A stretch of DNA of 62,074 nt, filler included, from Stramenopiles sp. TOSAG23-2 (lineage: Eukaryota), in assembly GCA_900128395.1 (NCBI GenBank). It is 10 parts of 10 records of this genome, joined end to end, with 100 filler letters (N's around TTAATTAATTAA, not from the genome) between each part and the next. Parts side by side here need not be neighbours in the genome. Positions count along the whole stretch, not along the records: positions 12,469 to 18,599 come from LT650513.1; 9 more parts are not named here. One strand, written 5' to 3'. A program made the position numbers and the translations under genes. Below, piece by piece: positions 12,359 to 62,074 of the stretch. The notes beneath the pieces are model-generated. The model made no database searches. It saw nothing but the letters and a program-made list of their open reading frames with translations, and was not told the DNA's origin. The first letter of the stretch is position 1. Every line of letters begins with the position of its first letter.

Positions 12359-12692
12359 AGAGAGAGAGNNNNNNNNNNNNNNNNNNNNNNNNNNNNNNNN
12401 NNNNNNNNNNNNTTAATTAATTAANNNNNNNNNNNNNNNNNNNNNNNNNNNNNNNNNNNNNNNNNNNNAAATAAAATTGGCATTTTAGAAAACGATATAT
12501 ACATATTTCCCATAGTGAATAGTTTTATTTGTGACATAATAAGGCGGATCTCAATCATCATATAACCGTTTGGTACACATTTTATGAAAGCAATATATAT
12601 AATAATAATAATAATATATATTATTATTATTCAGAGGTAGGCAGATAGATAGATTTGAGAGAGGAGAGATCAGAGAGAGAGCGAGAGATTGT

Positions 12693-13255
12693 TGTTGTTG
12701 TTGTTGTTGAAAAGAGAGATTCTTATTATTGAAGAGAGATCGTTGTTGTTATTGTTGAAAAGAGAGATTCTTATTATTGAAGAGAGATCGTTGTTGTTAT
12801 TGTTGAAAAGAGAGATTCTTATTATTGAAGAGAGATCGTTGTTGTTATTGTTGAAAAGAGAGATTCTTATTATTGAAGAGAGATCGTTGTTGTTATTGTT
12901 GAAAAGAGAGATTCTTATTATTGAAGAGAGATCGTTGTTGTTATTGTTGAAAAGAGAGATTCTTATTATTGAAGAGAGATTCATATATTGTTATTGTTGA
13001 AGAGAGATTCATATATTGTTGAAGAGAGATATCGTTGTTTTTATTGTTTTAAAGAGAGTTTGTTGTTTTTATTGTTGAAAAGATATTGATATTCTTATAT
13101 TGTTGAAGAGAGATATCGTTATTGTTGAACAGATATTGATATTCTTATTGTTGAAGAGAGATTCTTATTGTTGAAAAGAGATTCTTGTTGTTATTGTTGA
13201 AGAGATATAGGGGATATCAGAGCATTTGTTGTTATTGTTATTGAAGAGATATTGT
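12693..13255. repeat. 48-bp minisatellite (6 near-perfect units, 12693-12980) decaying into degenerate TTGAA(A)GAGAGAT subunits
   Basis: Unit CGTTGTTGTTATTGTTGAAAAGAGAGATTCTTATTATTGAAGAGAGAT repeated head-to-tail without spacers. Confidence 0.9.
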
Positions 13256-13745
13256 TATTCTCAACAAAAAGACAAAGCAAATTAAAAATAAATTTTGCAT
13301 TTTCCAACACACTAAAATATTTACTTTTATAAAATATATAAAAGATTTTACTGAGAAATGTTTTTTTTTTTAGAAATGATAGCACATACTTCGTTTTTAT
13401 ACGAACGCACGAACGTCGTACTATTTCCAGAAAGTTATTTGATGATTATTTTTATATGATGAAAATTCCTGAAATGTTCCCATACTTTTTTTAAAATATA
13501 TTAAGTATGTATTTTTGTATACTAAAATAATGTATCCTAACAAGGTGAGTTTTGGTCAAATGGTCAAATAGGAATATTAGTATACAAACATGCATGTTCG
13601 TTTAACCACTTTGGTGATGATACTCATGTCAATAAATATTGGATTTATTTTTACTAAAAAAGAATTCGTTGGATTCATTTTGATAGGTTAAATAATATTA
13701 AAACAAGAATCGTTTTAGCATTTTTTTTCACGGATATATGTAAAC

Positions 13746-13957
13746 CTTTTTGAAATAAATGGAAAGGAAAGCAATTTAGCTATATTTACACGATATATAT
13801 GACACATTGGGATGTAGATAGATATATGTGACACATTGGGATATAGATTATCTTTTTGAAATAAATGGAAAGGAAAGCAATTTAGCTATATTTACACGAT
13901 ATATATGACACATTGGGATGTAGATAGATATATGTGACACATTGGGATATAGATTAT
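13746..13957. repeat. Exact 106-bp tandem duplication
   Basis: 13746-13851 repeated at 13852-13957. Confidence 0.85.
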
Positions 13958-14193
13958 ATATATATATATATATATTTAATTGCAATATTATTGTAATATT
14001 TAGTAAATAATAGTGCATATTAAAATAAATATATATATATATAATTATTGTCCATAGTTAAATATATAGTCCACATTCAATAAATATATATATATTTAAT
14101 AATTATATAGTCCATATAGTTAAAATAAATAAAGAAAGATTTCATCATCGTTGTAATACCTATAATAGCAAGAAGCAAACGAAATTTGGATAC

Positions 14194-14918
14194 ATGGAAA
14201 TGAAACGAACACGATATATTTACATGACCATGTTATACATTTCCATCATTATATTATCATCGTTACAATTGTATCAAACATATGCAAAGGAACAACAACA
14301 ACAACAACAACATGCATTATACCAATTACCATCCTCACAAATAACAAATTCATTAATTGAACATGTAAAAAACATGGACGACGAGAAAACACCACCATCT
14401 GAAAAAGCTACAATATTAGCAAATTTATTAGCAACATCTTTCCTTGAGTATGGTGCATATAATGGTCAAATAAATGTTGGATTTGATCCAGAAGAAGGTT
14501 TACCAGAACCAACGCCACAGTGTAAACGTATAATGAACCATTGGACGAAAAAATGTTTAGTTGGAGGTAAAAAACATTTTTCATCTCCTGGGATTTATCC
14601 TGATCTTGATTCTGGTGCAAGTAATCCACATGATGGTGGTGGTGGTGGTGGTAATGGTGGTGGTGGCGCACCAGGTGATGAAAATGAAAAACCAAAAGGT
14701 GGTGGTGGTGGTGGATGTGGTGGTGGTTTAATTGGTGCAATCCTATGTCTTGTGAAAAAAGTAGTAAAACATGTAGCAAAAGCAGCACAAGGTATTGGTA
14801 AAGCATTATTTGGTTTTAAACAAATAAATGGAACGCAAGTGTTAATACGTTATGCAAATAATGATACAAATAATATATCAAACATGTGGGTGTTTGGCCC
14901 ACCAAATATTTATTCTTC

Positions 14919-14954
<36 letters not shown>

Positions 14955-15114
14955 GTTGAATGATAAGAAGAGAGATATGATAGTTAGTAACAGTAATGCT
15001 GTTTCATCATCCATGATTAATAATAAGGATGATAAAACTAAGGATGATAAAACGATAGATGATGATCAATTAATTCAAGCTGCAATGAAAATGCAATCGG
15101 GACAGCAGACATAA
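14194..15114 (+). CDS. Secreted precursor carrying one C-x9-C cationic amphipathic (AMP-like) module
   Basis: Signal-like MLYISIIILSSLQLYQTYA, an SFLE motif, Gly linkers, then CGGGLIGAILCLVKKVVKHVAKAAQGIGKALFGFKQ, closely similar to modules in the 56009-62074 ORF. Confidence 0.7.
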
Positions 15115-15179
15115 AGCTCTAAAAAAGTGTTTTAAAAATTAAAAAAATATTAAAATGTGTGTGTAAATAGTAAATCATT

Positions 15180-16106
15180 TTAACCTAGATATATACCCGC
15201 AGTCAAAAAAATAAAATAAGAGATATTGAAAATACGAGAACCTGGTTTCACTTCTTGTATAATATCATCATCAAATAAATGATGTAAATGTATCATTCCA
15301 CATTCTTCTAATACTTTTTCAGCTTGATATTTTTTCATTGGGTCCCTGTTTGAATATACGTATATCAGATGTATATATTTAATTACATTTTTAGTTGTTA
15401 GTTCATGTAGAGAAAAAGAGTCAATGAAAATAATTTGTACTACTTACAATTTACCATTGATACGTTCTTCATTTGTAATGTTAAATTGATATTCCTCTAA
15501 ACAATTTATTTTGATTATTGCATTATCATTTACATTTGCATTATTATTATTTTCATCATTTATTGTTATTTGTTCTTCCCCCATCATCATCGACGATGGT
15601 TTTTTTCTTGTAGAAGATTCATCATCAGCATTATTATTATTACTATGTTTATTGTTAAATTGATAATCCCCTACGATAATATTACCAATTTTTGCAAATG
15701 GTGAATCAATAGTTGATAAACTACCACGGAAATCAAATCGTATCAATGTATTTTTAGGTGGTGCAATGAAATGCAAATGACCAATATATACATCTTTAAA
15801 TAAATGTTTTGAAATCTCTGGTTCAATTTGTTGATGATCATACATTTCCTCTGTTATTACGTCAGTTAAATAAATATGGAAATCTATTTCTTGAAATAAC
15901 TCAACTGGAATAATCCATTTTAATGATATTATTTTTTGTTGTTCCACTTGATATTTTTCAGTTGTAAACAAGCAATTTTCAAATTCTAAAAACAATGCCG
16001 CTGGTGTTCTTGATGGTGGTTGCTGTTGTTGTTGTTGTAATGCGTGTGCCGTTGTTATGATTAAGCATATTGCGATGGAAAAAACGATACTTAATACTAC
16101 TTTCAT
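15180..16106 (-). CDS. Secreted hypothetical protein, at least 2 exons (16106-15448, 15345-15180)
   Basis: Signal peptide MKVVLSIVFSIAICLIITTAHA. GTAAGT donor at 15447 and CAG acceptor at 15346 give the in-frame continuation LDPMKKYQAEKVLEECGMIHL. Confidence 0.55.
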
Positions 16107-16244
16107 TTGTGTGTATGTGTAATAAAAATGTCGTTGGACGGTCAATTTTTGATGATGCAAATTATAAAAAAAAAAAATGCAAAAACAAATATAACTAATA
16201 TAATAACAAGATAATATATATATATATGCAAAAATCTCTTACAA

Positions 16245-16420
16245 ACTGACTTTCCAATGGACGGTCATGAATATATGCAAATGTACGTGTTTGGCAGAAC
16301 AATAAATTAATTTTGTAATTATATCTATATATACTGACTTTCCAATGGACGGTCATGAATATATGCAAATGTACGTGTTTGGCAGAACAATAAATTAATT
16401 TTGTAATTATATCTATATAT
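16245..16420. repeat. Exact 88-bp tandem duplication
   Basis: 16245-16332 repeated at 16333-16420. Confidence 0.85.
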
Positions 16421-16740
16421 TGCTTAAATTGCTTTTTTTGTATCAACAAAAATCGGGTATCATTCTTAATTGTATGGGCCTGCTATAATTAATTATTAAC
16501 AACAGACTTTTTTTTTTAATTAATAGAAGTTACTATAGTACTATTATAGTAAAATACATATATTATAATCTTATTGTATAATAAAGGATTGATATTATAT
16601 ATATATATATAACTATATGTGTAATATATATATCAATAGTGAGTGAGACAATAACATCTATCTAACACGTACAGTTCATTTGTAATTGATACGGGCATAA
16701 AATATAGAAAACAAAACGTAGTAACAAAAAAAAATTACCA

Positions 16741-16914
16741 ACAAGTATCATCAGATTATTATTGATCAATTACGACTAATTATTTAGCCGTTTAAAATAT
16801 TTAAAATATTTGAGTAAAAAAAAGACCACAAGTATCATCAGATTATTATTGATCAATTACGACTAATTATTTAGCCGTTTAAAATATTTAAAATATTTGA
16901 GTAAAAAAAAGACC
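16741..16914. repeat. Exact 87-bp tandem duplication
   Basis: 16741-16827 repeated at 16828-16914. Confidence 0.85.
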
Positions 16915-16991
16915 ACAACACCAAACATCATTTGTACATACCACAACAACTCTCTTTATATAACATATTCACTTGTAAAGATAAATAAACC

Positions 16992-17786
16992 ATGCAAAAA
17001 GAAAACGAAGATGTCATAAAATTAAGAAAAGCAAGTAAATTAGCAACAGTGCAAGGAATACGTACAGTTACAGAAATTATGAAAAAATTAATACATGATC
17101 CATGGATACAACAAGAATGTACCAGAATGGCATGGAATTTTATATTTCATTATCCAAAGTTTAAAAAAATATTTTATGATTATGAAGGTATAGAAACGAC
17201 CATTGAATCCATTGCATTGCATTATAAAAATAAATTATATGGAAAACACATAGCAAAATCTGGTTTATTTTGTATACATCAAATGGCAACAATAATTACA
17301 ACTAAAAACCCAAAAATGAAAACAACACTTATACAAAATATACATGAAACAACTGTACGATCAAATGTAGTAGAAGTTGCAGTTAATGCTATGCGTTATT
17401 ATCCATTAGATGCACGTTTACAAGAAGCGGGGTGTGCTGCATTAGGTTGGTGGGCATTTAAAGCAACAAACAGAGATAGGGCAAAATGTATAATAGCTGG
17501 TGGATTGGAAGTATGTGAAGAAGCACAAGCATCGCATACAAAAAATGTACATGTACAACGTTATGCCAATTGGACAATAGAATTATTACGTGAAGCAGAA
17601 GCAGAATATAAAGCTGAATTAATTGCAATTGAGGAAGCTAAACGACGTAGGGAAATGATTGATAAAATGGTTAAAAGTCAAATTGAATATGCAAGACAAA
17701 AAAAATTAAAAAAAGATAAAGCATTAAGAGAGATGGGGATATTGGATGGTGATGGGGAAGGAGAGATTAATTATTATCCGAAGTGA
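16992..17786 (+). CDS. Armadillo-like repeat protein with C-terminal coiled coil
   Basis: VNAMRYYPLDARLQEAGCAALGW and similar ARM-type helices; charged helical tail. Confidence 0.65.
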   Translation: MQKENEDVIKLRKASKLATVQGIRTVTEIMKKLIHDPWIQQECTRMAWNFIFHYPKFKKIFYDYEGIETTIESIALHYKNKLYGKHIAKSGLFCIHQMATIITTKNPKMKTTLIQNIHETTVRSNVVEVAVNAMRYYPLDARLQEAGCAALGWWAFKATNRDRAKCIIAGGLEVCEEAQASHTKNVHVQRYANWTIELLREAEAEYKAELIAIEEAKRRREMIDKMVKSQIEYARQKKLKKDKALREMGILDGDGEGEINYYPK

Positions 17787-17932
17787 GAGATTAATGATTG
17801 ATAAAATGGTTAAAAGTCAAATTGAATATGCAAGACAAAAAAAATTAAAAAAAGATAAAGCATTAAGAGAGATGGGGATATTGGATGGTGATGGGGAAGG
17901 AGAGATTAATTATTATCCGAAGTGAGAGATTA
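17654..17932. repeat. 139-bp tandem duplication of the 3' end of the ARM gene
   Basis: 17654-17792 repeated from 17793, including the stop codon. Confidence 0.85.
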
Positions 17933-18234
17933 GAGAGATGTGTGGTGTGTAAAAAATATTTTAGATATGATATGTAAAAATATATTTTCATATTTTTTGT
18001 CGTTTTTTATATTTTTTATAAAAAATAAAATTAAATTTTTAATTCTCTCTTTATATCTAGTGGTTTTAATTAATTTATTTCAACAAATTTTACTGGGGTC
18101 AAAAGGCCAAATTGCCGACCATATATGTGATGACTACAAAAAAAAATAATATGACCCACAAGACACCACGCACATCAATTTTTTTAATCATTCTCCGTAT
18201 ACATCATCTCAAACTATACAACTCTTGCTCCATA

Positions 18235-18599
18235 TCAATCCTCTTCAGAACTTTCACTATCTTCCTCTTCACTACTATCATCATCATCTTCCTCTTCGGA
18301 ACTTTCTTCTTCTTCTGAACTTTCTTCTTCTTCTGAACTGTCATCATCTTCTTCCTCTTCCGAGCTGTCATCATCTTCTTCCTCTTCCGAGCTGCCATCA
18401 TCTTCTTCCTCATCTGAACTTTCATCATCATCTTCCTCTTCTTGTTCATCCAATAATTTTTTCTTTGCTTCGGTAGAAATTTTCTTCTTTTTCTTTTTAT
18501 CGTTTCCACTATCATCATCTTTCTTACGTCTTTTTTTCTTTTTACTGCTCATTTTCTTTTTCTTTCTTCCACCACGTTTCTTTTTTGGTGTTTTATGTA
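18235..18599 (-). CDS. C-terminal Lys-rich / Asp-Glu-Ser-rich low-complexity tail of a truncated gene (probably nuclear)
   Basis: Frame open to the contig edge. KKKKRRKK followed by repeated SSEEEEDDD. Confidence 0.6.
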
Positions 18600-49785: not shown

Positions 49786-50521
49786 TATTATTTGGATTGG
49801 CTATGAGCTCGCACGTAGCTTTTGGCAATCAAGTTGATTCTTACCATACTGCTACAAAATCTTTTTTGAATGTTTTTCAGTTAACTTTTGGTGACTTTGA
49901 CATTAGCTTTGATTCGATGATGAAGAGCAAAGAGGTTTTTACAATGATATTTTGGATACTCTCTACTTTTGCAATGACAATGGTCATGATGAACGTGATG
50001 ATTGCTGTCGTATCGGACGTTTACCAAGATAGTGTTCGTGAAAGTAAGAAAGATTTTGTCACTGAAAGTAATGTAAGACTAATGAAGCAGTTGAAAAACT
50101 TGAAGAGGGCAGATAATAATGATGTTTTAAAGCTAATTGGGGATTATTTAAGTGTATCGAAAACACTGGTGGATAAAGATGTGAATCGATTGGTTCGTAC
50201 ATTAGCAAAAGGACATGGAAAGAGTTTGAAAGAGAGTAGAGAAGAAACTTTTCGTCGAGTTTTAGGTGCTTCAAAAGGAAATGATTTTCACAGCGTCATG
50301 AAATATTTGACAAAACTATCTGTTGAATAGGCGTTGAGTTGGATGAACAAGGATTAGAAGACGAAGGTGATCATATGCCGGACAGTGAATCATACAGTGC
50401 AAAAGTTCAATATGACTACTTGCAACATAAAAAATTTCATCAACGAAAAATAGAAGATCGTGAGAAAGATTCTAAAGAAAAACTTGCACAAAGAAGGGCA
50501 GCCCAAAAACTTAACTCTTGA
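49786..50521 (+). CDS. C-terminal part of a polycystin (PKD2/TRPP-like) cation channel, 5' truncated
   Basis: Pore and S6 signature FG.QVDSYHT..KSFLNVFQLTFGDFD...MMNVMIAVVSDVY. The 50339-50521 segment can be joined by a putative 65-bp intron (50266-50330). Confidence 0.7.
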
Positions 50522-50697
50522 GAGATTCATGTGTGTACTCGTATATTTCACATCAGGAAAAAATATATTTGGTGTATAAATCATATATATTATATTTTCA
50601 TTACGAAAAGCGATGTTACTTTTTTGTAAAATATGATACGAGTACTCGTACTATTTTATAGAGATATATATGTCTTTCATACCGCCATATATTTTTT

Positions 50698-52380
50698 TTA
50701 CAGAAAATCAAACACACCCCAATGATTTTCATATTTATCTTTTGCAATATTACATGCTCGTGCATCTTTTTTTCCTCTATATGGACTGTAAACTGTTTTT
50801 TGTGCTTCTTCAATACGTTTTAACATTTCATTGAATAAATCTGGCATAGATGGTGCAAGATTATTCATTTCATATGGATCTTCTTTAATATTAAATAAAC
50901 AGCCATGTTTTGCATCAGGCTTACATTTCATTAATTTTGTTAATGGCCATAAACGTGGCTTCGTATTATTTGGCCAATTTGCACCTGTAATAGTATTTTG
51001 ATTTACGTTATATAAGCGACTTTTTGCACCAATAATCAATTTATAATCATTAATAATGATACCTCCAACTAATGTTTTTCCACCGGCATTTGGATATAAA
51101 CTAGTTGTATCTCCTATAATAATTTCATTACGTGGTGATGTATTGTTTTTACCGGAAAGTAAAGGCCACATGTTAATGGAATCAATTCCTGGTAAATTTG
51201 CGTTTGCAGCCATATTATCAAATGGATCTATATTTGCTATACTAGCATATGTTGCATACCAATCCCATCCTGTAATATAGTGTTCTATTTTCGTTCCAAC
51301 TTTTTCATTTGGAATAATTCCACCTGTAACAAATGCATTTACACGAATACCCCCCTCCCAATTACTAAATTTTCCTCCCTTTAATGGAAAATTATTCCCC
51401 CCGCATAATCCTCCACCCATGATTTCACCCCCATTATCTGCATGGAAAACAATTAATGCATTATCATATATACCACGTTTTTTCAACAAGTCGATTACTT
51501 TCCCAACATTTTCATCCATTAAATTACCCATCGCATGATTTAATCGTCTATATGTATTATTGATGAAAGAAAATTTATCAACATATTTTTGTGGTACTTG
51601 CAAAGGCATGTGCACCAAATGCATCGACCAAAAAAGAAATAATGATGTTGATACATCATGTTTTTCAATAATATTCAAAACTTCATTTGTTAAAATTTCT
51701 TCCTCATATATACACGTTTCATTATTCTTAGGTTTTTGATTATCTTGAGAACAGCTTGGACCATTTTGATAAAAAGTTGCTGGACCATCAAACGTTTCAT
51801 TATATTTCCATAAATCATATACAGGTTTTGATGAACATTTTTCCACTGTGTATTGCCAATAATCGTTGCTATGGTGAAAATATCCTAACCATGTATCATA
51901 TCCTCGAAATTTTGGGTGGTGGTAAGGAGTAGCCATGCCTACGTCCCATTTGCCAACAATGTGTGTTTTATAATTTTGTTTACGAAGCAATGCAGCAATT
52001 CCTGTCATATTTGTTGGTATTCCTTGATACCCACCGATAATATCTTTTGAATTAGTAACTTCTGGTGGAACATTTTGAACATTTACATGTATTGGGTTTC
52101 TACCAGTTTGTATAGAGCTACGTGAAGGAGAGCAAATTTTATATACATAGAATCGATCAAGTTCGATCCCTGAATTTTTTAACGCATCAAGATTCGGTGT
52201 CTGTACCTCTTGATTATTGTTATTATTATTATTTCGATGATAACCGATATCTGCCCAACCATAATCATCCGCTAAAATATGTATAATATGTGGGTGTGGT
52301 GGTGTTGATTTTGCACTGAATACATGTTGTAATAATGTTATTATTATTATTATTATTATGATTGGGTATAATTTAATCAT
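50698..52380 (-). CDS. Arylsulfatase B-like sulfatase (family S1), left arm copy
   Basis: Signal peptide from MIKLYP, ILADDYGW, CSPSR (FGly motif), VGKWDVG, ADNG, KGGK..NWEGGIRV. Confidence 0.92.
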   Translation of the reverse strand: MIKLYPIIIIIIIITLLQHVFSAKSTPPHPHIIHILADDYGWADIGYHRNNNNNNNQEVQTPNLDALKNSGIELDRFYVYKICSPSRSSIQTGRNPIHVNVQNVPPEVTNSKDIIGGYQGIPTNMTGIAALLRKQNYKTHIVGKWDVGMATPYHHPKFRGYDTWLGYFHHSNDYWQYTVEKCSSKPVYDLWKYNETFDGPATFYQNGPSCSQDNQKPKNNETCIYEEEILTNEVLNIIEKHDVSTSLFLFWSMHLVHMPLQVPQKYVDKFSFINNTYRRLNHAMGNLMDENVGKVIDLLKKRGIYDNALIVFHADNGGEIMGGGLCGGNNFPLKGGKFSNWEGGIRVNAFVTGGIIPNEKVGTKIEHYITGWDWYATYASIANIDPFDNMAANANLPGIDSINMWPLLSGKNNTSPRNEIIIGDTTSLYPNAGGKTLVGGIIINDYKLIIGAKSRLYNVNQNTITGANWPNNTKPRLWPLTKLMKCKPDAKHGCLFNIKEDPYEMNNLAPSMPDLFNEMLKRIEEAQKTVYSPYRGKKDARACNIAKDKYENHWGVFDFL

Positions 52381-53288
52381 TATTATCCTGTTAAAAAAAG
52401 TTGAAAAAGCTGCAAGAATGGTATATACATACATATATATATAATGTCGGTCTTTTCTGTTATCTGTATAATCAGTTGTTCCATTGATGTGATCCTAATC
52501 CCATCTATAATATTTTCAACACTTCTTTTTGTTATAAGCTAATAATATCTTTTTTTTTTGCGGGCTCTTCTCGTCGTATCTTTTTAAGGCTTTTATTACT
52601 TTTTCCTATCTTTTTTTTGGTGTTTTGATTTTTGTATATCAGCCTTTTACTTTCAGGTAAATTTTTTTTTTTGTTTCCCTTTTTTTCTTAAAAAAATACG
52701 AGCGTGTACTGGTGCTACTTTATACCGAGGTCGTAATTAATATAAATATTATCTTTTAAAAATTTAATAAAATTAAAAGGTATGCACGTATTAAGTTTTA
52801 ATGAAGTGTGCGTGTACATTTTATATTTTTTTTTAAAAAAAAATTTAAAATGTACACGCACACTTCATTAAAACTTAATACGTGCATACCTTTTAATTTT
52901 ATTAAATTTTTAAAAGATAATATTTATATTAATTACGACCTCGGTATAAAGTAGCACCAGTACACGCTCGTATTTTTTTAAGAAAAAAAGGGAAACAAAA
53001 AAAAAAATTTACCTGAAAGTAAAAGGCTGATATACAAAAATCAAAACACCAAAAAAAAGATAGGACAAAGTAATAAAAGCCTTAAAAAGATACGACGAGA
53101 AGAGCCCGCAAAAAAAAAAGATATTATTAGCTTATAACAAAAAGAAGTGTTGAAAATATTATAGATGGGATTAGGATCACATCAATGGAACAACTGATTA
53201 TACAGATAACAGAAAAGACCGACATTATATATATATGTATGTATATACCATTCTTGCAGCTTTTTCAACTTTTTTTAACAGGATAATA

Positions 53289-54971
53289 ATGATTAAATTA
53301 TACCCAATCATAATAATAATAATAATAATAACATTATTACAACATGTATTCAGTGCAAAATCAACACCACCACACCCACATATTATACATATTTTAGCGG
53401 ATGATTATGGTTGGGCAGATATCGGTTATCATCGAAATAATAATAATAACAATAATCAAGAGGTACAGACACCGAATCTTGATGCGTTAAAAAATTCAGG
53501 GATCGAACTTGATCGATTCTATGTATATAAAATTTGCTCTCCTTCACGTAGCTCTATACAAACTGGTAGAAACCCAATACATGTAAATGTTCAAAATGTT
53601 CCACCAGAAGTTACTAATTCAAAAGATATTATCGGTGGGTATCAAGGAATACCAACAAATATGACAGGAATTGCTGCATTGCTTCGTAAACAAAATTATA
53701 AAACACACATTGTTGGCAAATGGGACGTAGGCATGGCTACTCCTTACCACCACCCAAAATTTCGAGGATATGATACATGGTTAGGATATTTTCACCATAG
53801 CAACGATTATTGGCAATACACAGTGGAAAAATGTTCATCAAAACCTGTATATGATTTATGGAAATATAATGAAACGTTTGATGGTCCAGCAACTTTTTAT
53901 CAAAATGGTCCAAGCTGTTCTCAAGATAATCAAAAACCTAAGAATAATGAAACGTGTATATATGAGGAAGAAATTTTAACAAATGAAGTTTTGAATATTA
54001 TTGAAAAACATGATGTATCAACATCATTATTTCTTTTTTGGTCGATGCATTTGGTGCACATGCCTTTGCAAGTACCACAAAAATATGTTGATAAATTTTC
54101 TTTCATCAATAATACATATAGACGATTAAATCATGCGATGGGTAATTTAATGGATGAAAATGTTGGGAAAGTAATCGACTTGTTGAAAAAACGTGGTATA
54201 TATGATAATGCATTAATTGTTTTCCATGCAGATAATGGGGGTGAAATCATGGGTGGAGGATTATGCGGGGGGAATAATTTTCCATTAAAGGGAGGAAAAT
54301 TTAGTAATTGGGAGGGGGGTATTCGTGTAAATGCATTTGTTACAGGTGGAATTATTCCAAATGAAAAAGTTGGAACGAAAATAGAACACTATATTACAGG
54401 ATGGGATTGGTATGCAACATATGCTAGTATAGCAAATATAGATCCATTTGATAATATGGCTGCAAACGCAAATTTACCAGGAATTGATTCCATTAACATG
54501 TGGCCTTTACTTTCCGGTAAAAACAATACATCACCACGTAATGAAATTATTATAGGAGATACAACTAGTTTATATCCAAATGCCGGTGGAAAAACATTAG
54601 TTGGAGGTATCATTATTAATGATTATAAATTGATTATTGGTGCAAAAAGTCGCTTATATAACGTAAATCAAAATACTATTACAGGTGCAAATTGGCCAAA
54701 TAATACGAAGCCACGTTTATGGCCATTAACAAAATTAATGAAATGTAAGCCTGATGCAAAACATGGCTGTTTATTTAATATTAAAGAAGATCCATATGAA
54801 ATGAATAATCTTGCACCATCTATGCCAGATTTATTCAATGAAATGTTAAAACGTATTGAAGAAGCACAAAAAACAGTTTACAGTCCATATAGAGGAAAAA
54901 AAGATGCACGAGCATGTAATATTGCAAAAGATAAATATGAAAATCATTGGGGTGTGTTTGATTTTCTGTAA
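53289..54971 (+). CDS. Arylsulfatase B-like sulfatase (family S1), right arm copy
   Basis: Translation identical to the left arm copy. Confidence 0.9.
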   Translation: MIKLYPIIIIIIIITLLQHVFSAKSTPPHPHIIHILADDYGWADIGYHRNNNNNNNQEVQTPNLDALKNSGIELDRFYVYKICSPSRSSIQTGRNPIHVNVQNVPPEVTNSKDIIGGYQGIPTNMTGIAALLRKQNYKTHIVGKWDVGMATPYHHPKFRGYDTWLGYFHHSNDYWQYTVEKCSSKPVYDLWKYNETFDGPATFYQNGPSCSQDNQKPKNNETCIYEEEILTNEVLNIIEKHDVSTSLFLFWSMHLVHMPLQVPQKYVDKFSFINNTYRRLNHAMGNLMDENVGKVIDLLKKRGIYDNALIVFHADNGGEIMGGGLCGGNNFPLKGGKFSNWEGGIRVNAFVTGGIIPNEKVGTKIEHYITGWDWYATYASIANIDPFDNMAANANLPGIDSINMWPLLSGKNNTSPRNEIIIGDTTSLYPNAGGKTLVGGIIINDYKLIIGAKSRLYNVNQNTITGANWPNNTKPRLWPLTKLMKCKPDAKHGCLFNIKEDPYEMNNLAPSMPDLFNEMLKRIEEAQKTVYSPYRGKKDARACNIAKDKYENHWGVFDFL

Positions 54972-55147
54972 AAAAAATATATGGCGGTATGAAAGACATA
55001 TATATCTCTATAAAATAGTACGAGTACTCGTATCATATTTTACAAAAAAGTAACATCGCTTTTCGTAATGAAAATATAATATATATGATTTATACACCAA
55101 ATATATTTTTTCCTGATGTGAAATATACGAGTACACACATGAATCTC

Positions 55148-55883
55148 TCAAGAGTTAAGTTTTTGGGCTGCCCTTCTTTGTGCAAGTTTTTCTTTAGAAT
55201 CTTTCTCACGATCTTCTATTTTTCGTTGATGAAATTTTTTATGTTGCAAGTAGTCATATTGAACTTTTGCACTGTATGATTCACTGTCCGGCATATGATC
55301 ACCTTCGTCTTCTAATCCTTGTTCATCCAACTCAACGCCTATTCAACAGATAGTTTTGTCAAATATTTCATGACGCTGTGAAAATCATTTCCTTTTGAAG
55401 CACCTAAAACTCGACGAAAAGTTTCTTCTCTACTCTCTTTCAAACTCTTTCCATGTCCTTTTGCTAATGTACGAACCAATCGATTCACATCTTTATCCAC
55501 CAGTGTTTTCGATACACTTAAATAATCCCCAATTAGCTTTAAAACATCATTATTATCTGCCCTCTTCAAGTTTTTCAACTGCTTCATTAGTCTTACATTA
55601 CTTTCAGTGACAAAATCTTTCTTACTTTCACGAACACTATCTTGGTAAACGTCCGATACGACAGCAATCATCACGTTCATCATGACCATTGTCATTGCAA
55701 AAGTAGAGAGTATCCAAAATATCATTGTAAAAACCTCTTTGCTCTTCATCATCGAATCAAAGCTAATGTCAAAGTCACCAAAAGTTAACTGAAAAACATT
55801 CAAAAAAGATTTTGTAGCAGTATGGTAAGAATCAACTTGATTGCCAAAAGCTACGTGCGAGCTCATAGCCAATCCAAATAATA
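55148..55883 (-). CDS. Mirror copy of the polycystin-like channel C-terminus
   Basis: Reverse complement of 49786-50521. Confidence 0.68.
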
Positions 55884-56008: not shown

Positions 56009-59000
56009 TTACTCTTTCCCTGGCAAATTGACGCCATTAACACTCATTGGTAATTCAGGATTATCCATTATTTTATATGTTTTAATTTTTTGACATAGTG
56101 GGCATTGATGAGCTTCTAGTTTGACACATGTTTGACCTTCGTATCGGTTACTATCACTATATAATTTATCAAACGATGATGAAAACAATAATTGGTAATC
56201 ATGACCTCGTTCAAACGTGTAAAAGATATTTGCGCCCATAATCAATTCGTGGCAATCTGAACAAGATCCTAACCATTTAAATGCTTGTCCATGCCCATTA
56301 TAATTGCGTATACGTGTATTTTCCGGAGGAGCAATAATTGGCTTTTCAGGTCGTTTGGCACGACCTATAATTTCGTTGTCCATCTTTGTTAATATCACTT
56401 GTACAACCCCGTCATTTAAATCATTGCAAGTAAACAGACCATGTGTTTTATGAGCATCGCAAGTAATGCCATTTTGAAGTTGTTTCCCTGCAAATGTATT
56501 TAAGACGGTTAATTTAAATTCAACTACATGTTCAATCAATTCTACTGAACGAAATGTTCCTAATTTATCTGGAATATTTGGACCAAAACATACGTTTTCT
56601 GCCAATGTCACCCATTCTTGAGACCTATCTATTTCATGCCCAGGTTCTTTCCTTGGGAATTCTTTGTATGGTATAAACCTTGTTTTATTAAAACCACGGT
56701 GAATATCATGCAATTGATATGTTAAATGATTTAATTGTTTTTGGATTTTTCCTAAATGTGCCATTTTGATCTTTCTCTTTACTGCTTCTTCATTTTCTTT
56801 TCTATCATTGTTTGCTATAATTGGTTTCTTCATCTTTTTTTTTGGAAGAATACAATTATTGACATCATCCTCATAACGTATCATTGCCGTACCTTCTCGT
56901 GAAAAACATTGTGGTTGATCTATTTTTGTATACATTATATCAAGGCTAAATTTATCATCGGCTACAATATGTGAATGGCATTCTTCTTCCGTACCTTCTT
57001 CACCAGTAACAGCATCGTCATACCGATATTTTAAAATCAATTCATAGACTTTTTCTTCCTCCTTTGCTGTAGGATCCACTTTAACGCCGAATAAAATATG
57101 ATAATACAATTCAACATCTTCATCTGGGTATAAATGCAATTCATTCGTTGTTTTATTTACTTTTTCTCGTACTATTGCAGTAACATCAATACCATCTGTA
57201 ACGGACCATAACTGTTTTGGGTTGCCATACCATGCCTTTAGTATATTTAAAGCATATCGTTTTTGTATTTTTCCACAATATTTTTGATGTACTGCATCAC
57301 CATCGTCATGTGTCGTATCGTCATCATCAGTTAATGCTTCCTCGCGCATTTTATTGTTGTTGTTGTTGTTGTTGTTATTTGCAATTAACTTGTGAATATG
57401 AAATGATTTTGATAATATATTTCGTCTTCCTCGTCTAGCACTACGCAACATACTTGTCGGTCTATGTCTCGTCTTCACCACCACATCGTGATTATTTACA
57501 ATCGTTTCACCCATGTTGATCTCTTTAAACTTTTCATCGTCGCCTTCATTATCTTCATCCGTTCCATCATCACCATCATTACTAATGTTGTCATCTTCTT
57601 CATCCGAATTATCATCTGTTGGTAAATCATCGTCGCCAACGTCCGATTCGTCTTTGCATTGTTTGTACTTTGCTTTTAAATCTTGACGCTTTGCTTTTTT
57701 TTCTCGAAGTTTTTCTTTTGTACGTTTGATCTTTCCTGTCATTGTTTTAATTTTTTGTTTGCGTTTTTCAGTTTTTTTTCTGTTACGCATTCGCTTCCGC
57801 TTTCTTTTCCTTCTTGATTTTTTTTTTCTAAGAAATCTAACCCTTTCTCTTATTTTTTTAATTCTCTTCTTGAATTTTGCGCAGTCCTTGCTACTATCAT
57901 CATCGCCTGCTCCTGGGGATGATCCTGGCGATGGTCCTGGGGATGGTCCTGGCGATGGTCCTGGCGACCCACTGTCTCCGTTATTACCTCCGTCGGTATT
58001 GCCTCCGTTATTTCCAACTCCTTCCCCTTTACCATCTGCTTTTGGTGGTGCAGCTCCACCTTCTGCTGGTGCCGCTTTCTCTGGTTTTTGAAACATGGCT
58101 CCAGAAAAATCAACATTAGACATTGTCTCTTCTATCTTGTTCATTCCTATTTTAGCTTTATTTAATATCTCTTTACCCTTTGCAACTAATTTTTCCCAAA
58201 AGGAATGGTCTGGATTCGATTTTGCAGCGTCAAGGGATTTTAACTCACCCTTCAACATTTTAACTTGCGCTTCTGCATTTTTCATCGCCCCAGCCAACTC
58301 CGGGTCTGCATTTGCAGATGCTTCAGCATGTTGTTTAATTTGTTTTTCTAAATGTTCTATTTTTGATCCAATTGCTGCTTCTTCTATTTTGATTTGATCT
58401 TTTAATAATTCAAGCCCTTCTTCTGCATGAATGTCTGCTTGCTTCTTTCCTGCTTCTTTTATTTTATTTTGCAATGTTGAAAGATATCCTCGCATGCTTC
58501 CAGGGCCATTTCGGGAAGCTTTTGCTTTTTCAGTTTCCTTCCATTTCTGTAACTCCTTATCAATTGTCTCGGATTTTTGTTGTGCCTGGTGAATAGCTTG
58601 CTTCATATCCATATGCATTTTTTCAGTTGTCTTTTCCTCTTCAAGTACTTTTCCTTCTTTTTTACCCATATGTGTTATTTCATCAAATAAATCATCAGCT
58701 TCTCCACCCTCGGGTTTACTTATTTGTGTAGATTGACAACTGCATGATTGCGAACACGATGCGCATACTTCTTTTGTCAATTTTGCTGCCATACAAATCC
58801 CAAAATCTTTTAATTTGTCTATAACCCCACATCTTGCTTTCGGGATATCAACACCTGGTGGTAATGATGGTGCTTTGTTTGGTGTATCATTATCCGTTCC
58901 TTGAGATTTTTTCTGATCTTCCAATTGTTTCTCGGAATTGTCATCTTTCACTGAGTTGCGTATAATATCACCATTAAATCCACCATCTTGAAGATTTTTC

Positions 59001-62000
59001 ATTGTAACTCTAGAATCCGCGTGTGGCAAATTAGGAGGCTCAATACCTATTTTTACAACCGTACCAGGTGGTTTCAAATGTTTCTTTGTCCATTCCCATT
59101 CCACACCTTCATGTTCTAACTTTACGAATATATTTGGGTTAGCATGTGGATCTAAATCCAACTCTTTCAATGCACATATTAATCTTTCCAACAAGCTTGG
59201 CTTGCATTTACAACCTTCATGGCCTTTTCCACCCTGAGGTGGTGGCGCTTTTACGTTTTTTTCGATTTCCTTCTTTATATCCTCCTGAGTTGGTTTTTTT
59301 TCATTTGTTGATGGCGGTGTTTTTGGTGCTGGTTTTGGTGCTTTTGCTTCATCCGCTTGTATAGATCCCATCTCGCTTAATTTTGGCGATTCTGCTTCAG
59401 CAGGTGCTGCTGCTGGCTTTGGCGCTGCTGGAGGAGGTGGTGCGGGGGCTGGTTTATCATCTCCACCTGTATCTTTACCTGTATCTCCACCTGCATCTTT
59501 ACCTGTATCTCCACCTGCATCTTTACCTTTATCTCCACCTGCATCTTTACCTTTATCTCCACCTGTATCTTTACCTTTATCTCCATCTGTATCTTTGCCT
59601 TTAGGAGCTGGTACAGGAGGAGCAGGGGGAGGTGGACAACATTTAATGTTATTACTTCCAGCACATTTGCCATGTAATACATCCGAATCACACTTTTCGT
59701 GGCGTAAATCAATACATTTTCCTTCTGCACCTTTACATTTCACATCGCACGATGGTGGGCCAGGACATTCCTTCCATTTATTTAAAAGTGCCGTATTTGC
59801 TTTTGCAGACTTATCATTTGGCAAACTATAACATTTTGATATTTTTATTTGATAAAATTTATAATCTTTATTGAAACATTCATACATAGTATTTGCACTT
59901 GGACATGCTGGTTGGCATGAACCTTGCACTTTGCTTTTCATTTCAACAAAAGACGACGTGCTACTTGGGTTATCCATATGCAAATGCGCTTTTCTTGCCA
60001 TGGCTCTTCTTTTTCGTTTGAAATTATTCCTTAAACTTAAATCTAGGAAACTGTTTGTTCTAGGTTTTACCATATTATTATTTTGATCGTCGCTTACATA
60101 AACAGATTTTTTTTGAATATTATTAGAATTTGTCACTGAATCGCCTTTGTTGGTGGATCCTTTCTTTCGAAGACCAACCATTTTATCATTGTTCTTAGCA
60201 TCGATCATCGTAGTTTTTCGAATCGTTTCACCCATGTTGATCTCTTTAAATTTACCACCACAATGTCCATCTGCACCCCAATTTTTTACAACTTTTACTT
60301 TCCTACCATCACCAAATGGATCTGGCTTTCCTAAAACATTATCAATGCATGTTTGGTCATTTCCAGCATCTCTAGCACGCCCATTATCATTACAATCATA
60401 ATTTTGACCTCCTTGATGTTTTGCCAAATATGCTTTACATTCCTCTGATTTATCCCCGCCTCCGCTATCTTTACCTCCACCTCCGCTATCTTTACCCCCG
60501 CCTCCGCTATCTTTACCCCCGCCTCCGCTATCTTTACCCCCGCCTCCAAGTTTTTTTGCTGCTTTTTTTATGCCTTTCACAACTTTCTTAATGAGACAAA
60601 ATATTTTTTTAAGTATTCCTTTTCCTTTTCCACATTTTTTTTTTCCCTTAGGTTTACCTGGTTTAAAGGGACTGCCTGAGGCGTCTTTAGCCGGCACCTT
60701 ATCTTCTGGACCTGCTTCATTTGCATCATCACCACCTTCCGTTCTTAAACCCTTAAGTTCTTCTACCATTGATTTAGGATTGTGACTATCCTCATGTTTG
60801 GATGGTGGTGGTCCTTTTTCTTGGTTTTCTATCTCGGCCGCATCTGCTTTTGCTTTATTGGCTATAAAAGTGCCAAGCAATTGACCTAAATCCCCTTTGC
60901 TTTTTGGGCATTCGTTTTTTTTATCACCGCAAGCACCTGCTTTCTTACATACTAAATCCTCTAGATCATCTGCGTTCATGCAATCAGTTCTTGATAATAT
61001 CTCTACACCAACTTCTTGAAATCCCATTTTTCCCAACTTGGAAACAAATTTCTTTGATGCTGCTGCAACTTTTTTAATGAAACAGGTAATGACACCTATT
61101 ACACCTTTACCTTTACCACATTTTTTCTTCTGCTCTTTTGCATCTGGTACAAGCACTTCTGGTTTCATTGGTGGTTTTTTATCTTTACAAACTGGCATAG
61201 GCGATGGCGATAAAAGACTAGCTACCGCACATGCTGGGCACGCGGGTGGGCTACCACCACCATCACCAGGACTTGGTCGTGGTTTTGGTGTTGGTCCAGG
61301 GCCATGGTTTGGTGATGCATTTGGTGATGCATTTGGTGATGCATTTGGTGATGCATTCGGTGATGCATTCGGTGATGCATTCGGTGATGCATTCGGTGAT
61401 ACACTAGGCAGTGATACATCTCGTGGTTCCATATTTGGTGTTGTTGGTGGTGCATGGCTTGGTGTTGCTACCGGTCGTGCCGCGCTTGGTTGTATTGGTG
61501 GTGGAGATGCATTTGGTGATGCACTTGGTGGCGTTGGTGGTGAATCTTTCTTATCCGGCATTCTACAAACCATTTTTTCATGTGGGCGTTGCATCATATT
61601 GCTTTTAGCATTTGCAATAGCAGCGGGCATTGGTTTTTCGTAAACAAAAGCTTCCCCTTTCTGTTTAAATTTAAGATTTAAAAATTTATCTACTGGTTCA
61701 TACTCATAGATTACCATGTCTCCATTTGAGTCCAAGTTAACTTGCTTGAATCCAAAGCCTAGTCCTTTTCCAACTGCTTTGAGACCTTTTCCAACAGCTT
61801 TTACAACTTTTTTTATTAGACATAAAATAGCACCAAGCAAACCTTTCTTGCACTTCTTTTTTCCACCGCCTGATCCGCCGCTGCCACCACCACCACCACT
61901 GCCACCACCACCACCACTACCTCCTCCACCAGCTCCTCCTGCTCCTGCAGCAGCAGCATCTGCTGTAGCTTTATCAGCCAAATTGTCTAACCCAGTACCC

Positions 62001-62074
62001 TCAAATGGCATTGCCTCCTCTCCACTACCACCACCACCACCACCACCTCCTCCTCCTCCTCCTCCTCCTCCTCT
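56009..62074 (-). CDS. >2000-aa modular polyprotein with AMP-like helices, Cys-rich modules, low-complexity linkers and C-terminal globular domains; 5' truncated
   Basis: Single open frame to the window end (21 further codons RGGG...SGEEA before the listed Met). Repeated C-x9/11-C helices; SPNA, GGGGKDS, DTGGDKGK and SPGP linkers. Confidence 0.8.
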   Translation of the reverse strand, partial: RGGGGGGGGGGGGGGGSGEEAMPFEGTGLDNLADKATADAAAAGAGGAGGGGSGGGGGSGGGGGSGGSGGGKKKCKKGLLGAILCLIKKVVKAVGKGLKAVGKGLGFGFKQVNLDSNGDMVIYEYEPVDKFLNLKFKQKGEAFVYEKPMPAAIANAKSNMMQRPHEKMVCRMPDKKDSPPTPPSASPNASPPPIQPSAARPVATPSHAPPTTPNMEPRDVSLPSVSPNASPNASPNASPNASPNASPNASPNASPNHGPGPTPKPRPSPGDGGGSPPACPACAVASLLSPSPMPVCKDKKPPMKPEVLVPDAKEQKKKCGKGKGVIGVITCFIKKVAAASKKFVSKLGKMGFQEVGVEILSRTDCMNADDLEDLVCKKAGACGDKKNECPKSKGDLGQLLGTFIANKAKADAAEIENQEKGPPPSKHEDSHNPKSMVEELKGLRTEGGDDANEAGPEDKVPAKDASGSPFKPGKPKGKKKCGKGKGILKKIFCLIKKVVKGIKKAAKKLGGGGKDSGGGGKDSGGGGKDSGGGGKDSGGGDKSEECKAYLAKHQGGQNYDCNDNGRARDAGNDQTCIDNVLGKPDPFGDGRKVKVVKNWGADGHCGGKFKEINMGETIRKTTMIDAKNNDKMVGLRKKGSTNKGDSVTNSNNIQKKSVYVSDDQNNNMVKPRTNSFLDLSLRNNFKRKRRAMARKAHLHMDNPSSTSSFVEMKSKVQGSCQPACPSANTMYECFNKDYKFYQIKISKCYSLPNDKSAKANTALLNKWKECPGPPSCDVKCKGAEGKCIDLRHEKCDSDVLHGKCAGSNNIKCCPPPPAPPVPAPKGKDTDGDKGKDTGGDKGKDAGGDKGKDAGGDTGKDAGGDTGKDTGGDDKPAPAPPPPAAPKPAAAPAEAESPKLSEMGSIQADEAKAPKPAPKTPPSTNEKKPTQEDIKKEIEKNVKAPPPQGGKGHEGCKCKPSLLERLICALKELDLDPHANPNIFVKLEHEGVEWEWTKKHLKPPGTVVKIGIEPPNLPHADSRVTMKNLQDGGFNGDIIRNSVKDDNSEKQLEDQKKSQGTDNDTPNKAPSLPPGVDIPKARCGVIDKLKDFGICMAAKLTKEVCASCSQSCSCQSTQISKPEGGEADDLFDEITHMGKKEGKVLEEEKTTEKMHMDMKQAIHQAQQKSETIDKELQKWKETEKAKASRNGPGSMRGYLSTLQNKIKEAGKKQADIHAEEGLELLKDQIKIEEAAIGSKIEHLEKQIKQHAEASANADPELAGAMKNAEAQVKMLKGELKSLDAAKSNPDHSFWEKLVAKGKEILNKAKIGMNKIEETMSNVDFSGAMFQKPEKAAPAEGGAAPPKADGKGEGVGNNGGNTDGGNNGDSGSPGPSPGPSPGPSPGSSPGAGDDDSSKDCAKFKKRIKKIRERVRFLRKKKSRRKRKRKRMRNRKKTEKRKQKIKTMTGKIKRTKEKLREKKAKRQDLKAKYKQCKDESDVGDDDLPTDDNSDEEDDNISNDGDDGTDEDNEGDDEKFKEINMGETIVNNHDVVVKTRHRPTSMLRSARRGRRNILSKSFHIHKLIANNNNNNNNNKMREEALTDDDDTTHDDGDAVHQKYCGKIQKRYALNILKAWYGNPKQLWSVTDGIDVTAIVREKVNKTTNELHLYPDEDVELYYHILFGVKVDPTAKEEEKVYELILKYRYDDAVTGEEGTEEECHSHIVADDKFSLDIMYTKIDQPQCFSREGTAMIRYEDDVNNCILPKKKMKKPIIANNDRKENEEAVKRKIKMAHLGKIQKQLNHLTYQLHDIHRGFNKTRFIPYKEFPRKEPGHEIDRSQEWVTLAENVCFGPNIPDKLGTFRSVELIEHVVEFKLTVLNTFAGKQLQNGITCDAHKTHGLFTCNDLNDGVVQVILTKMDNEIIGRAKRPEKPIIAPPENTRIRNYNGHGQAFKWLGSCSDCHELIMGANIFYTFERGHDYQLLFSSSFDKLYSDSNRYEGQTCVKLEAHQCPLCQKIKTYKIMDNPELPMSVNGVNLPGKE

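Follow-up and report, generated by a model that had tools for sequence, protein, structure and literature searches.

A predicted cationic amphipathic module is shared by a short protein with a signal-like N-terminus and a giant mosaic protein of Stramenopiles sp. TOSAG23-2

In this study, which was based on a single stretch of DNA of 62,074 bases from Stramenopiles sp. TOSAG23-2 (GenBank assembly GCA_900128395.1; hereafter the window), we analysed a short gene that encodes a cationic, amphipathic module and the relationship of this gene to a much larger open reading frame (ORF) in which the same module occurs three times. The window consists of ten segments of about 6 kb each with runs of N between them. 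The short gene, whose product is referred to as P0002, is a complete single-exon ORF of 306 residues that runs from ATG to TAA on the plus strand (14194-15114) in segment 3 (12469-18599), and its orthologues align with it end to end. The giant ORF, which encodes at least 2021 residues, is located on the minus strand (56009-62074) in segment 10; its 5' end is cut by the end of the segment and its three modules begin at C75, C319 and C481. Because the two ORFs are found in separate segments, they belong to different contigs.

The N-terminus of the short protein (residues 1-31; 14194-14286, on the plus strand like all of the features of this gene given below) resembles a signal peptide. It comprises the n-region MEMKRTR, the h-region YIYMTMLYISIIILSSL with a 17-residue hydrophobic core and then T-Y-A, which places T and A at positions -3 and -1 before K32. 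The signal peptide calls were made by a hand reading of the n-, h- and c-regions and by Kyte-Doolittle hydropathy, and the best 19-residue window of the N-terminus of P0002 scored 1.63. The N-termini of the orthologues were clearer, with a best 19-residue hydropathy of 2.44 in P0005 and ...FVVSG before DRH in P0011, and a hydrophobic, signal-like N-terminus was kept in three orthologue groups (P0002, P0005 and P0011/P0018/P0022). It is followed by a predicted helical pro-region (14350-14448), recognised from motif positions, conservation in the orthologues and the structural model, that contains two S-hydrophobic-x-E motifs, SLIE (residues 53-56) and SFLE (residues 82-85; 14437-14448). This pattern, which is only four residues long, occurs twice in P0002, whereas composition alone predicts 0.53 occurrences; the orthologues conserve it in the form SF[LI]E, and the wider family in the form S[FL]L[EQ]. 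In the full-length AlphaFold2 model, which was used only as a hint of secondary structure, helices were predicted at residues 47-59 and 68-86 with a predicted local distance difference test score (pLDDT) of approximately 63-67.

Downstream of the pro-region lie a Cys-loop motif, GFDPxxGLxEPTPxC[KR]RxxNxWxxxC (residues 88-125; 14455-14568; 77 bits), whose sole copy in a six-frame search of the window is the one in this ORF, and Gly-rich linkers (residues 148-174; 14635-14715) that include a TGG repeat at 14634-14666 and whose Gly runs are kept in the orthologues. The linkers lead into the module, which extends from C175 to Q210 (14716-14823), and the module into a conserved extension, INGTQVLIRY (residues 211-220; 14824-14853), that is predicted to form a beta-hairpin together with the preceding FGFKQ and in which the short type shows no variation at I211, N212, G213, V216, L217 and Y220. 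The remainder is an Asn-rich tail that ends in a conserved acidic motif, IDDDQLIQAAM (residues 288-298; 15055-15087), for which a helix was predicted at residues 290-301 with a low pLDDT. The four Cys residues of the protein are found at positions 110, 121, 175 and 185. The net charge of residues 32-174 is -5 and that of the module is +6; an acidic pro-part followed by a cationic part is the charge layout of many prepro-peptides.

The module of the short protein, CGGGLIGAILCLVKKVVKHVAKAAQGIGKALFGFKQ, matched the giant ORF in a BLASTP comparison over giant residues 78-125 with 27 of 48 residues identical (56%), gaps of one and four residues and an E value of 3e-11, and a second match was obtained to giant module 2 (15 of 53 residues; E 4e-4). 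The closest paralogue was giant module 1 (residues 75-130; 61685-61852, minus strand), with which an ungapped core of 28 residues shares 18 identities. Since none of 500 shuffles reached the Smith-Waterman score of 144 (shuffles 38.7 +/- 6.1, maximum 61), this match is beyond chance. At the DNA level, 59 of the 84 nucleotides of the 28 core codons are identical and at nine of the 18 identical residues the two genes differ in their codon, which indicates that the duplication is old and that the protein sequence has been under constraint. A preliminary description of this DNA had placed a signal-like N-terminus, the SFLE motif, a two-Cys segment, poly-Gly linkers and the module in a 306-residue ORF on a separate contig, and its coordinates were right and its reading of a signal-like N-terminus was supported; the module is common to two unlinked genes and is conserved in related taxa. 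None of the three outcomes that this description had named as refuting it was seen. Its phrase that the two copies align almost residue for residue was slightly too strong, even though the match itself held.

An alignment of six module copies (A1), together with further copies read from P0011, P0012, P0013 and P0014, revealed the order of the parts, i.e., a Lys/Gly-rich lead-in, a Cys, a G-x-G stretch with about six hydrophobic residues, a second Cys (C-x9-C or C-x11-C) and, after it, [LF][IV]KKV and a Lys-rich helix that usually ends in GK-x-L-(G)FGF[KR]Q. The short protein has the C-x9-C form of the hydrophobic head. Given such a head, the module could be read as the membrane span of a type I membrane protein in which KKVVK stops transfer, as the 19-residue window GGCGGGLIGAILCLVKKVV has a Kyte-Doolittle value of 1.56, which is near the usual threshold, and basic residues come after it. 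However, the uninterrupted hydrophobic run is approximately 10 residues long in every module, compared to the approximately 18 or more of a membrane span; moreover, Lys residues stand on both sides of it in the giant protein and in P0013 (KKKCKKG... and KKKCGKGKG...) and even inside the head of giant module 3 (ILKKIF). Because the run is so short and is bounded or interrupted by Lys in the paralogues, we consider a transmembrane span to be highly improbable.

Further analysis of the modules showed a consistent combination of charge and amphipathicity. In the 10 modules that were tested, the net charge ranged from +6 to +11 and the maximal hydrophobic moment over 18 residues from 0.58 to 0.77. 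The value for the short-gene module was 0.69, which none of 1000 shuffles reached; in nine of the 10 modules the observed moment was reached by at most 1.4% of 1000 shuffles and in P0005 by 6%. The moment peaked sharply at 100 degrees (0.49 compared to at most 0.21 at other angles). Among 12,604 windows of 18 residues from 22 ORFs, the three highest moments belonged to giant module 3, giant module 1 and the short-gene module, and 27 of the 33 windows that had a moment of at least 0.58 and a charge of at least +5 were located in the short and giant ORFs. Positive charge and a predicted amphipathic helix, two properties of linear cationic helical antimicrobial peptides, are thus both found in the modules. 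AlphaFold2 run on A1 predicted a helix at residues 178-205, with a pLDDT of 70-79 in its first 20 residues, and hairpin strands at residues 207-211 and 214-218 with a pLDDT of 51-58. A different use of the charge would be the binding of polyanions other than membranes (cell-wall or extracellular polysaccharide, nucleic acid or a mineral phase) by matrix or capture proteins. The high density of Lys, the Gly/Asp/Ser/Lys repeats beside giant module 3 and the other low-complexity repeats are compatible with it, but polyanion binding needs neither a strict 100-degree periodicity nor a conserved hydrophobic head or a Cys pair, and we regard it as improbable.

The short ORF is a real gene of an uncultured marine protist. 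The same ORF was found on an independent metagenome contig (L001) with 99% DNA identity, and it recurs in six nearly identical proteins that form one cluster and come from other assemblies. Moreover, its orthologues P0005 (319 residues) and P0011/P0018/P0022 (277-282 residues; locus L002) align over the full length with 46-51% identity, and both groups keep the hydrophobic N-terminus, SF[LI]E, the Cys-loop motif, the Gly linkers, the module, all four Cys residues, the INGxxVLxxY extension and the C-terminal I[DN]DDxL[IL]xAAM motif. DNA of the short gene was present in 20 of the 24 listed runs, 14 of which contained half or more of the sampled words; the runs with this DNA include small runs from 2015 of 'organism A/B' as well as marine and seawater metagenomes from 13 studies. 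Regarding expression, four RNA libraries, each from a different study (polyA, oligo-dT and ribosomal-RNA-depleted), yielded contigs that covered 14253-15134 piecewise, with 0-1 mismatches and no joints, and the cover was zero in the flanks at 13600-14252 and 15135-15700. The runs with small word shares (X20-X24) were left out. As the RNA cover is low (depth 2-6) and the runs had been selected for containing the short gene, this evidence of transcription, which had been named as a check in the preliminary description, is supportive rather than conclusive. A spike in RNA depth at 14697-14727 (up to 2,883) was rejected as expression; it consisted of 31-letter contigs on a GGT repeat that had 2-3 mismatches and came from other sequences.

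Artefact-like features elsewhere in the assembly, i.e., a perfect palindrome and the absence of 1,103 nucleotides beside the short gene relative to L001, would suggest that the ORF arose by chance or as a chimera formed during single-cell amplification or assembly. For the ORF itself, however, the 99% identical contig, the protein clusters from other assemblies, the orthologues and the RNA-library contigs refute this explanation, whose probability we take to be negligible. The palindrome makes up the whole of segment 9 (49786-55883), whose arms (49786-52834 and 52835-55883; 3,049 nucleotides each) are 100% complementary with a spacer of 0 nucleotides. Because of it, the two identical sulfatase ORFs of 578 residues in this segment (50698-52434, minus strand; 53235-54971, plus strand) are one gene that is mirrored, and the palindrome looks like an amplification or assembly chimera and not like biology. 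The absent nucleotides (L001 1135-2237) would lie at 15245, directly downstream of the short gene; in L001 they complete an ORF of 343 residues that encodes a PhyH-like dioxygenase (Pfam PhyH, E 1.7e-9), which in the window is reduced to a 52-residue stub (15180-15338, minus strand). This difference could be a strain deletion or an assembly artefact.

Segment 3 also contains three exact tandem duplications of 2.0 copies with 100% matches (13746-13957, 16245-16420 and 17654-17932; periods of 106, 88 and 139 nucleotides), which may be assembly artefacts, and a 48-nucleotide repeat array at 12694-13205. The ORF that adjoins the short gene (15444-16160, minus strand; 238 residues) has, as the short ORF does, a signal-like N-terminus followed by a poly-Gln run, with the N-terminus of this neighbour read from an internal Met (MKVVLSIVFSIAICLIITTAHA); neither a Pfam family nor the module was found in it. 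The window as a whole is AT-rich, with a guanine-cytosine (GC) content of 0.25-0.42 in 2-kb windows. Its long ORFs carry eukaryotic domains as assigned by Pfam, i.e., a Glu/Gln-tRNA synthetase with a GST-like part, PP2C and WD40, and further domains include ankyrin with fn3, a bromodomain, an ABC transporter, a papain-type protease, a sulfatase and BNR. The GC content at third codon positions was 0.15-0.29 over the 21 measured ORFs (0.21 in the short gene and 0.24 in the giant), and this uniformity is compatible with a single genome.

A six-frame profile search of the window found the module only in the short ORF (87 bits) and in the giant ORF (71, 69.5 and 35 bits), and the next best match had an E value of 0.37. 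In a set of 5.8 billion proteins, which was searched with a word pre-filter and 8,000 scored candidates among proteins of 99-2000 residues, the module profile gave 10 matches at E <= 1. These matches represent three architectures: the short type, which comprises three species-level groups; the giant type, which is found in the source species and in the relatives P0012 and P0014 and, from the search for longer relatives of the giant, also in P0069 and P0070; and P0013, a protein of 589 residues with two modules from a 90-kb contig. Among metagenome contigs, 126 pattern matches to the module alignment were reduced to three confirmed by tblastn and two true loci. The third, L003, was rejected as a module locus, as it is a GC-rich bacterial contig in which the 38% match lies antisense within an ORF of 451 residues on the opposite strand. 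None of 64 pattern matches among viral contigs was confirmed, and hence these gave no sign of a viral origin. Although an expanded family had been suggested on the grounds that two members occurred among ten contigs, these two loci are its only ones in the window, and the public data, which are fragmentary and were searched from A1, show what appears to be a small, lineage-restricted module family and not an expanded one.

The Cys-loop motif has a different distribution. A profile search of 1.84 billion representative proteins returned 17 proteins at E <= 0.001 (eight at <= 1e-10 and four at <= 1e-30): four of the short type, two fragments of the short gene, one fragment of the giant and ten other small proteins. 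The latter match only positions of approximately 81-132 of the profile (P0040 from position 39), and these ten clusters (P0035, P0036, P0038 and P0040-P0046), which are marine and partly GC-rich, carry the motif GFDPxxGLxEPTPxC[KR]RxxNxWxxxC[VL]F. It is placed at the extreme C-terminus in P0040 and P0042-P0046 and occurs twice in tandem in P0035, P0036, P0038 and P0041. S[FL]L[EQ] precedes the motif in five of the six non-tandem proteins, three proteins (P0042, P0044 and P0045) have signal-like N-termini and no Pfam family was found for any of the ten. Judging from these sequences, the Cys-loop motif would mark an undescribed and more widespread family of small, apparently secreted proteins in AT-rich and GC-rich marine eukaryote sequences. 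The short gene, in turn, looks like a fusion in which a widespread unit made up of the putative signal peptide, the pro-region, the S-hydrophobic-x-E motif and the Cys-loop is joined to a lineage-specific cationic module and tail.

The giant ORF is a mosaic of mucin-like Pro/Ser/Asn repeats, SPNA and GKD-type repeats, Cys-rich stretches and an Arg/Lys-rich stretch, and KFKEINMGETI occurs in it twice, at residues 608 and 1515. Besides module 1 (71 bits), it carries module 2 (residues 319-370; 60965-61120, minus strand; 69.5 bits) and module 3 (residues 481-519; 60518-60634, minus strand; 35 bits), which is without the FGFKQ end and contains the top amphipathic window of the 12,604. No Pfam family was found over its 2,021 residues. 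The S-hydrophobic-x-E pattern was seen seven times compared to 3.48 expected, including SFVE at residue 708, and SFLD is found at residue 675. The proposal that the short gene supplies the N-terminus that is missing from the giant does not hold, as the two are different genes and no longer relative of the giant with a start was found; the search for N-terminally longer relatives returned five matches among 7,999 candidates, all of which were internal fragments. The start of P0009 appears to be Gly-repeat DNA read out of frame. In the relative P0070, the sequence upstream of module 2 is different, which suggests that modules may have been shuffled.

Comparison of the relatives revealed that variation in one pair is concentrated in and around the module. 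P0007 and P0011 (locus L002 2461-3309) have identical flanks of 57 residues before and 53 residues after the variable part, which comprises one residue that differs just ahead of the Gly run, a 7-residue indel and, within the module or immediately ahead of it, five further differences, of which two are next to the first Cys, two fall within the head and one is where the helix starts. The two could be alleles or recent paralogues with localised diversification. Within the source species, the sole substitution in the conserved mature part is L183I, which is also in the head. Such localised variation, behind which there is one contig of 779 nucleotides, is compatible with a surface that meets a changing target. 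Across the orthologues with 46-51% identity, the module and FGFKQ-INGxxVLxxY are among the best conserved parts. The module lengths of P0005 and P0011 on the one hand and P0002 and P0007 on the other differ by exactly seven residues and giant module 1 repeats the heptad KAVGKGL, and therefore the face of the helix stays in phase.

The conservation and the heptad phase bear on the main rival of a membrane-perturbing module, i.e., that it is a structural element, either an in-plane anchor on the outer leaflet of the organism's own membrane or on vesicles, or an oligomerising heptad helix of coat or adhesive proteins, in either case one that does not kill prey. The heptad periodicity with its 7-residue indels, the strong conservation of the module together with the following hairpin, the position of the short-type module between Gly linkers that lack cleavage sites and its recurrence in a giant protein with mucin-like repeats and Cys-rich stretches all agree with this explanation. 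However, a helix that is free of acidic residues and a charge of +6 to +11 would be unusual for a self-associating coiled coil, and the hydrophobic face is rich in Val, Ala and Gly and not in Leu and Ile. We judge a structural role to be rather unlikely, while giving it more weight than the other alternatives.

The reading that we favour, tentatively and with somewhat less than even confidence, is that the short gene encodes a secreted or vacuolar protein with a cationic amphipathic helix that, either tethered or set free, binds to anionic membranes and perturbs them, bacterial membranes being the most plausible target. According to this proposal, the product of the short gene would enter the secretory pathway, and the module, whose old duplication placed three copies in the giant mosaic protein and two in a third protein type, would be a membrane-seeking element that is unfolded or masked by the acidic N-terminal part until delivery. 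It would then lie on and perturb anionic membranes, including those of bacteria that are ingested or touched, while still tethered to the protein or after its release, with processing taking place, e.g., at SFLE.

Several observations weigh against a membrane-perturbing role. The search of the short and giant ORFs and their relatives against Pfam gave no family at E <= 0.01 and noise alone at E <= 10; the best E value in a sequence profile search of the PDB was 1.7, the ESM Atlas gave no usable match and Foldseek with the module model reached an E value of 9.9 at best. The module thus appears, by sequence or fold, to belong to no described family, and no known antimicrobial family resembles it. 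There is no K/R-K/R pair directly flanking residues 175-210 in P0002, where KK126 and KK258 lie closest; in the orthologues the module is entered by way of SKC or NKC, and the giant modules do follow KKK. Because of this lack of a flanking dibasic site, release as a free peptide is unsupported in the short type. The AlphaFold2 model of the whole protein is unreliable, with a mean pLDDT of 39.4 and approximately 30 for the module helix. Additionally, the mucin-like repeats and Cys-rich stretches around the giant modules suggest an extracellular structural or adhesive protein, and the strong conservation of the module is explained by a specific structural partner no less readily than by a defence peptide that evolves fast. 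Consequently, of the earlier characterisation of the module as antimicrobial-peptide-like, the physico-chemistry stands, while a similarity to a known peptide family and a flanking dibasic site in the short protein do not. What emerges is a module family that would be undescribed and narrowly distributed, with antimicrobial-peptide-like properties that are clear as far as they can be predicted.

The closest likeness in layout is to the precursors of the linear cationic alpha-helical host-defence peptides of animals, i.e., the magainin, dermaseptin and cecropin class. Like these, the short protein would combine a signal peptide, an acidic part (net -5) and a Lys-rich amphipathic helix (+6, moment 0.69). 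Unlike these, it shows no sequence similarity to them, the short type has no dibasic module borders, its helix comes after a Cys pair and a hydrophobic head and leads into a conserved hairpin and a long tail, and the module is embedded up to three times in large multi-part proteins. The ranid peptides with a 'Rana box' (brevinin and esculentin type) also join an amphipathic cationic helix to a two-Cys loop. In these peptides the loop is C-terminal and short, whereas here it is N-terminal, hydrophobic and of the C-x9-C or C-x11-C form, and there is no homology. In phagocytic amoebae, the pore-forming amoebapores and naegleriapores, which have a saposin-like, six-Cys fold, are protist effectors presumed to act on ingested bacteria and are in some cases made as multi-copy precursors; the modules described here differ from them in having two Cys residues each and neither a saposin nor any other Pfam match. 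In twin CX9C (CHCH) proteins, two CX9C helices are joined by a short turn and there is no signal peptide. The short protein likewise has two C-x9/10-C motifs, each of which could sit on a helix, but C110-x10-C121 and C175-x9-C185 are 53 residues apart across the Gly linkers, the N-terminus is signal-like and the modules of the giant and of P0013 occur without the first Cys motif, which sets it apart from the CHCH type.

The S-hydrophobic-x-E motif offers a further parallel. In the rhoptry and microneme proteins of Toxoplasma it is the consensus for pro-domain cleavage, as in ROP1 with SFVE|APVR (PMC5595437). As in these proteins, SF[LI]E comes after the putative signal peptide and predicted helical pro-region of the short type, and SLLE is found in the wider family. 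There is no sequence relationship to the Toxoplasma proteins and a four-residue motif is weak evidence at the frequencies given above; processing of the Toxoplasma type in the short protein is therefore a lead only.

Most small marine grazers are uncultured, and for this reason little is known of how they kill and digest bacteria. The titles and abstracts on antimicrobial peptides of heterotrophic flagellates and bacterivorous protists that were covered mention no such peptides, which is weak evidence of absence, as sequence motifs are unsearchable in text. In a paper on flagellate gene expression in bacterivory (PMC10268365), the word 'antimicrobial' appears in the reference list only.

It is conceivable, though unlikely, that the proteins described here represent the first described family of linear cationic membrane-active effectors of uncultured marine protist grazers. 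They would then be prepro-proteins processed at S-hydrophobic-x-E, in which an evolutionarily mobile helix module serves as the 'warhead' of both small secreted and giant surface or vacuolar proteins that capture or kill bacterial prey, while the Cys-loop would mark a separate, widespread family of secreted peptides. If the module is merely a structural anchor, it would be a lineage-specific orphan family of modest interest. As the conserved module is compact, at about 36 residues, direct tests of a synthetic version require no culture of the organism. Moreover, because DNA of the short gene is found in marine and seawater metagenomes of many studies, any function that the module has would be ecologically widespread.

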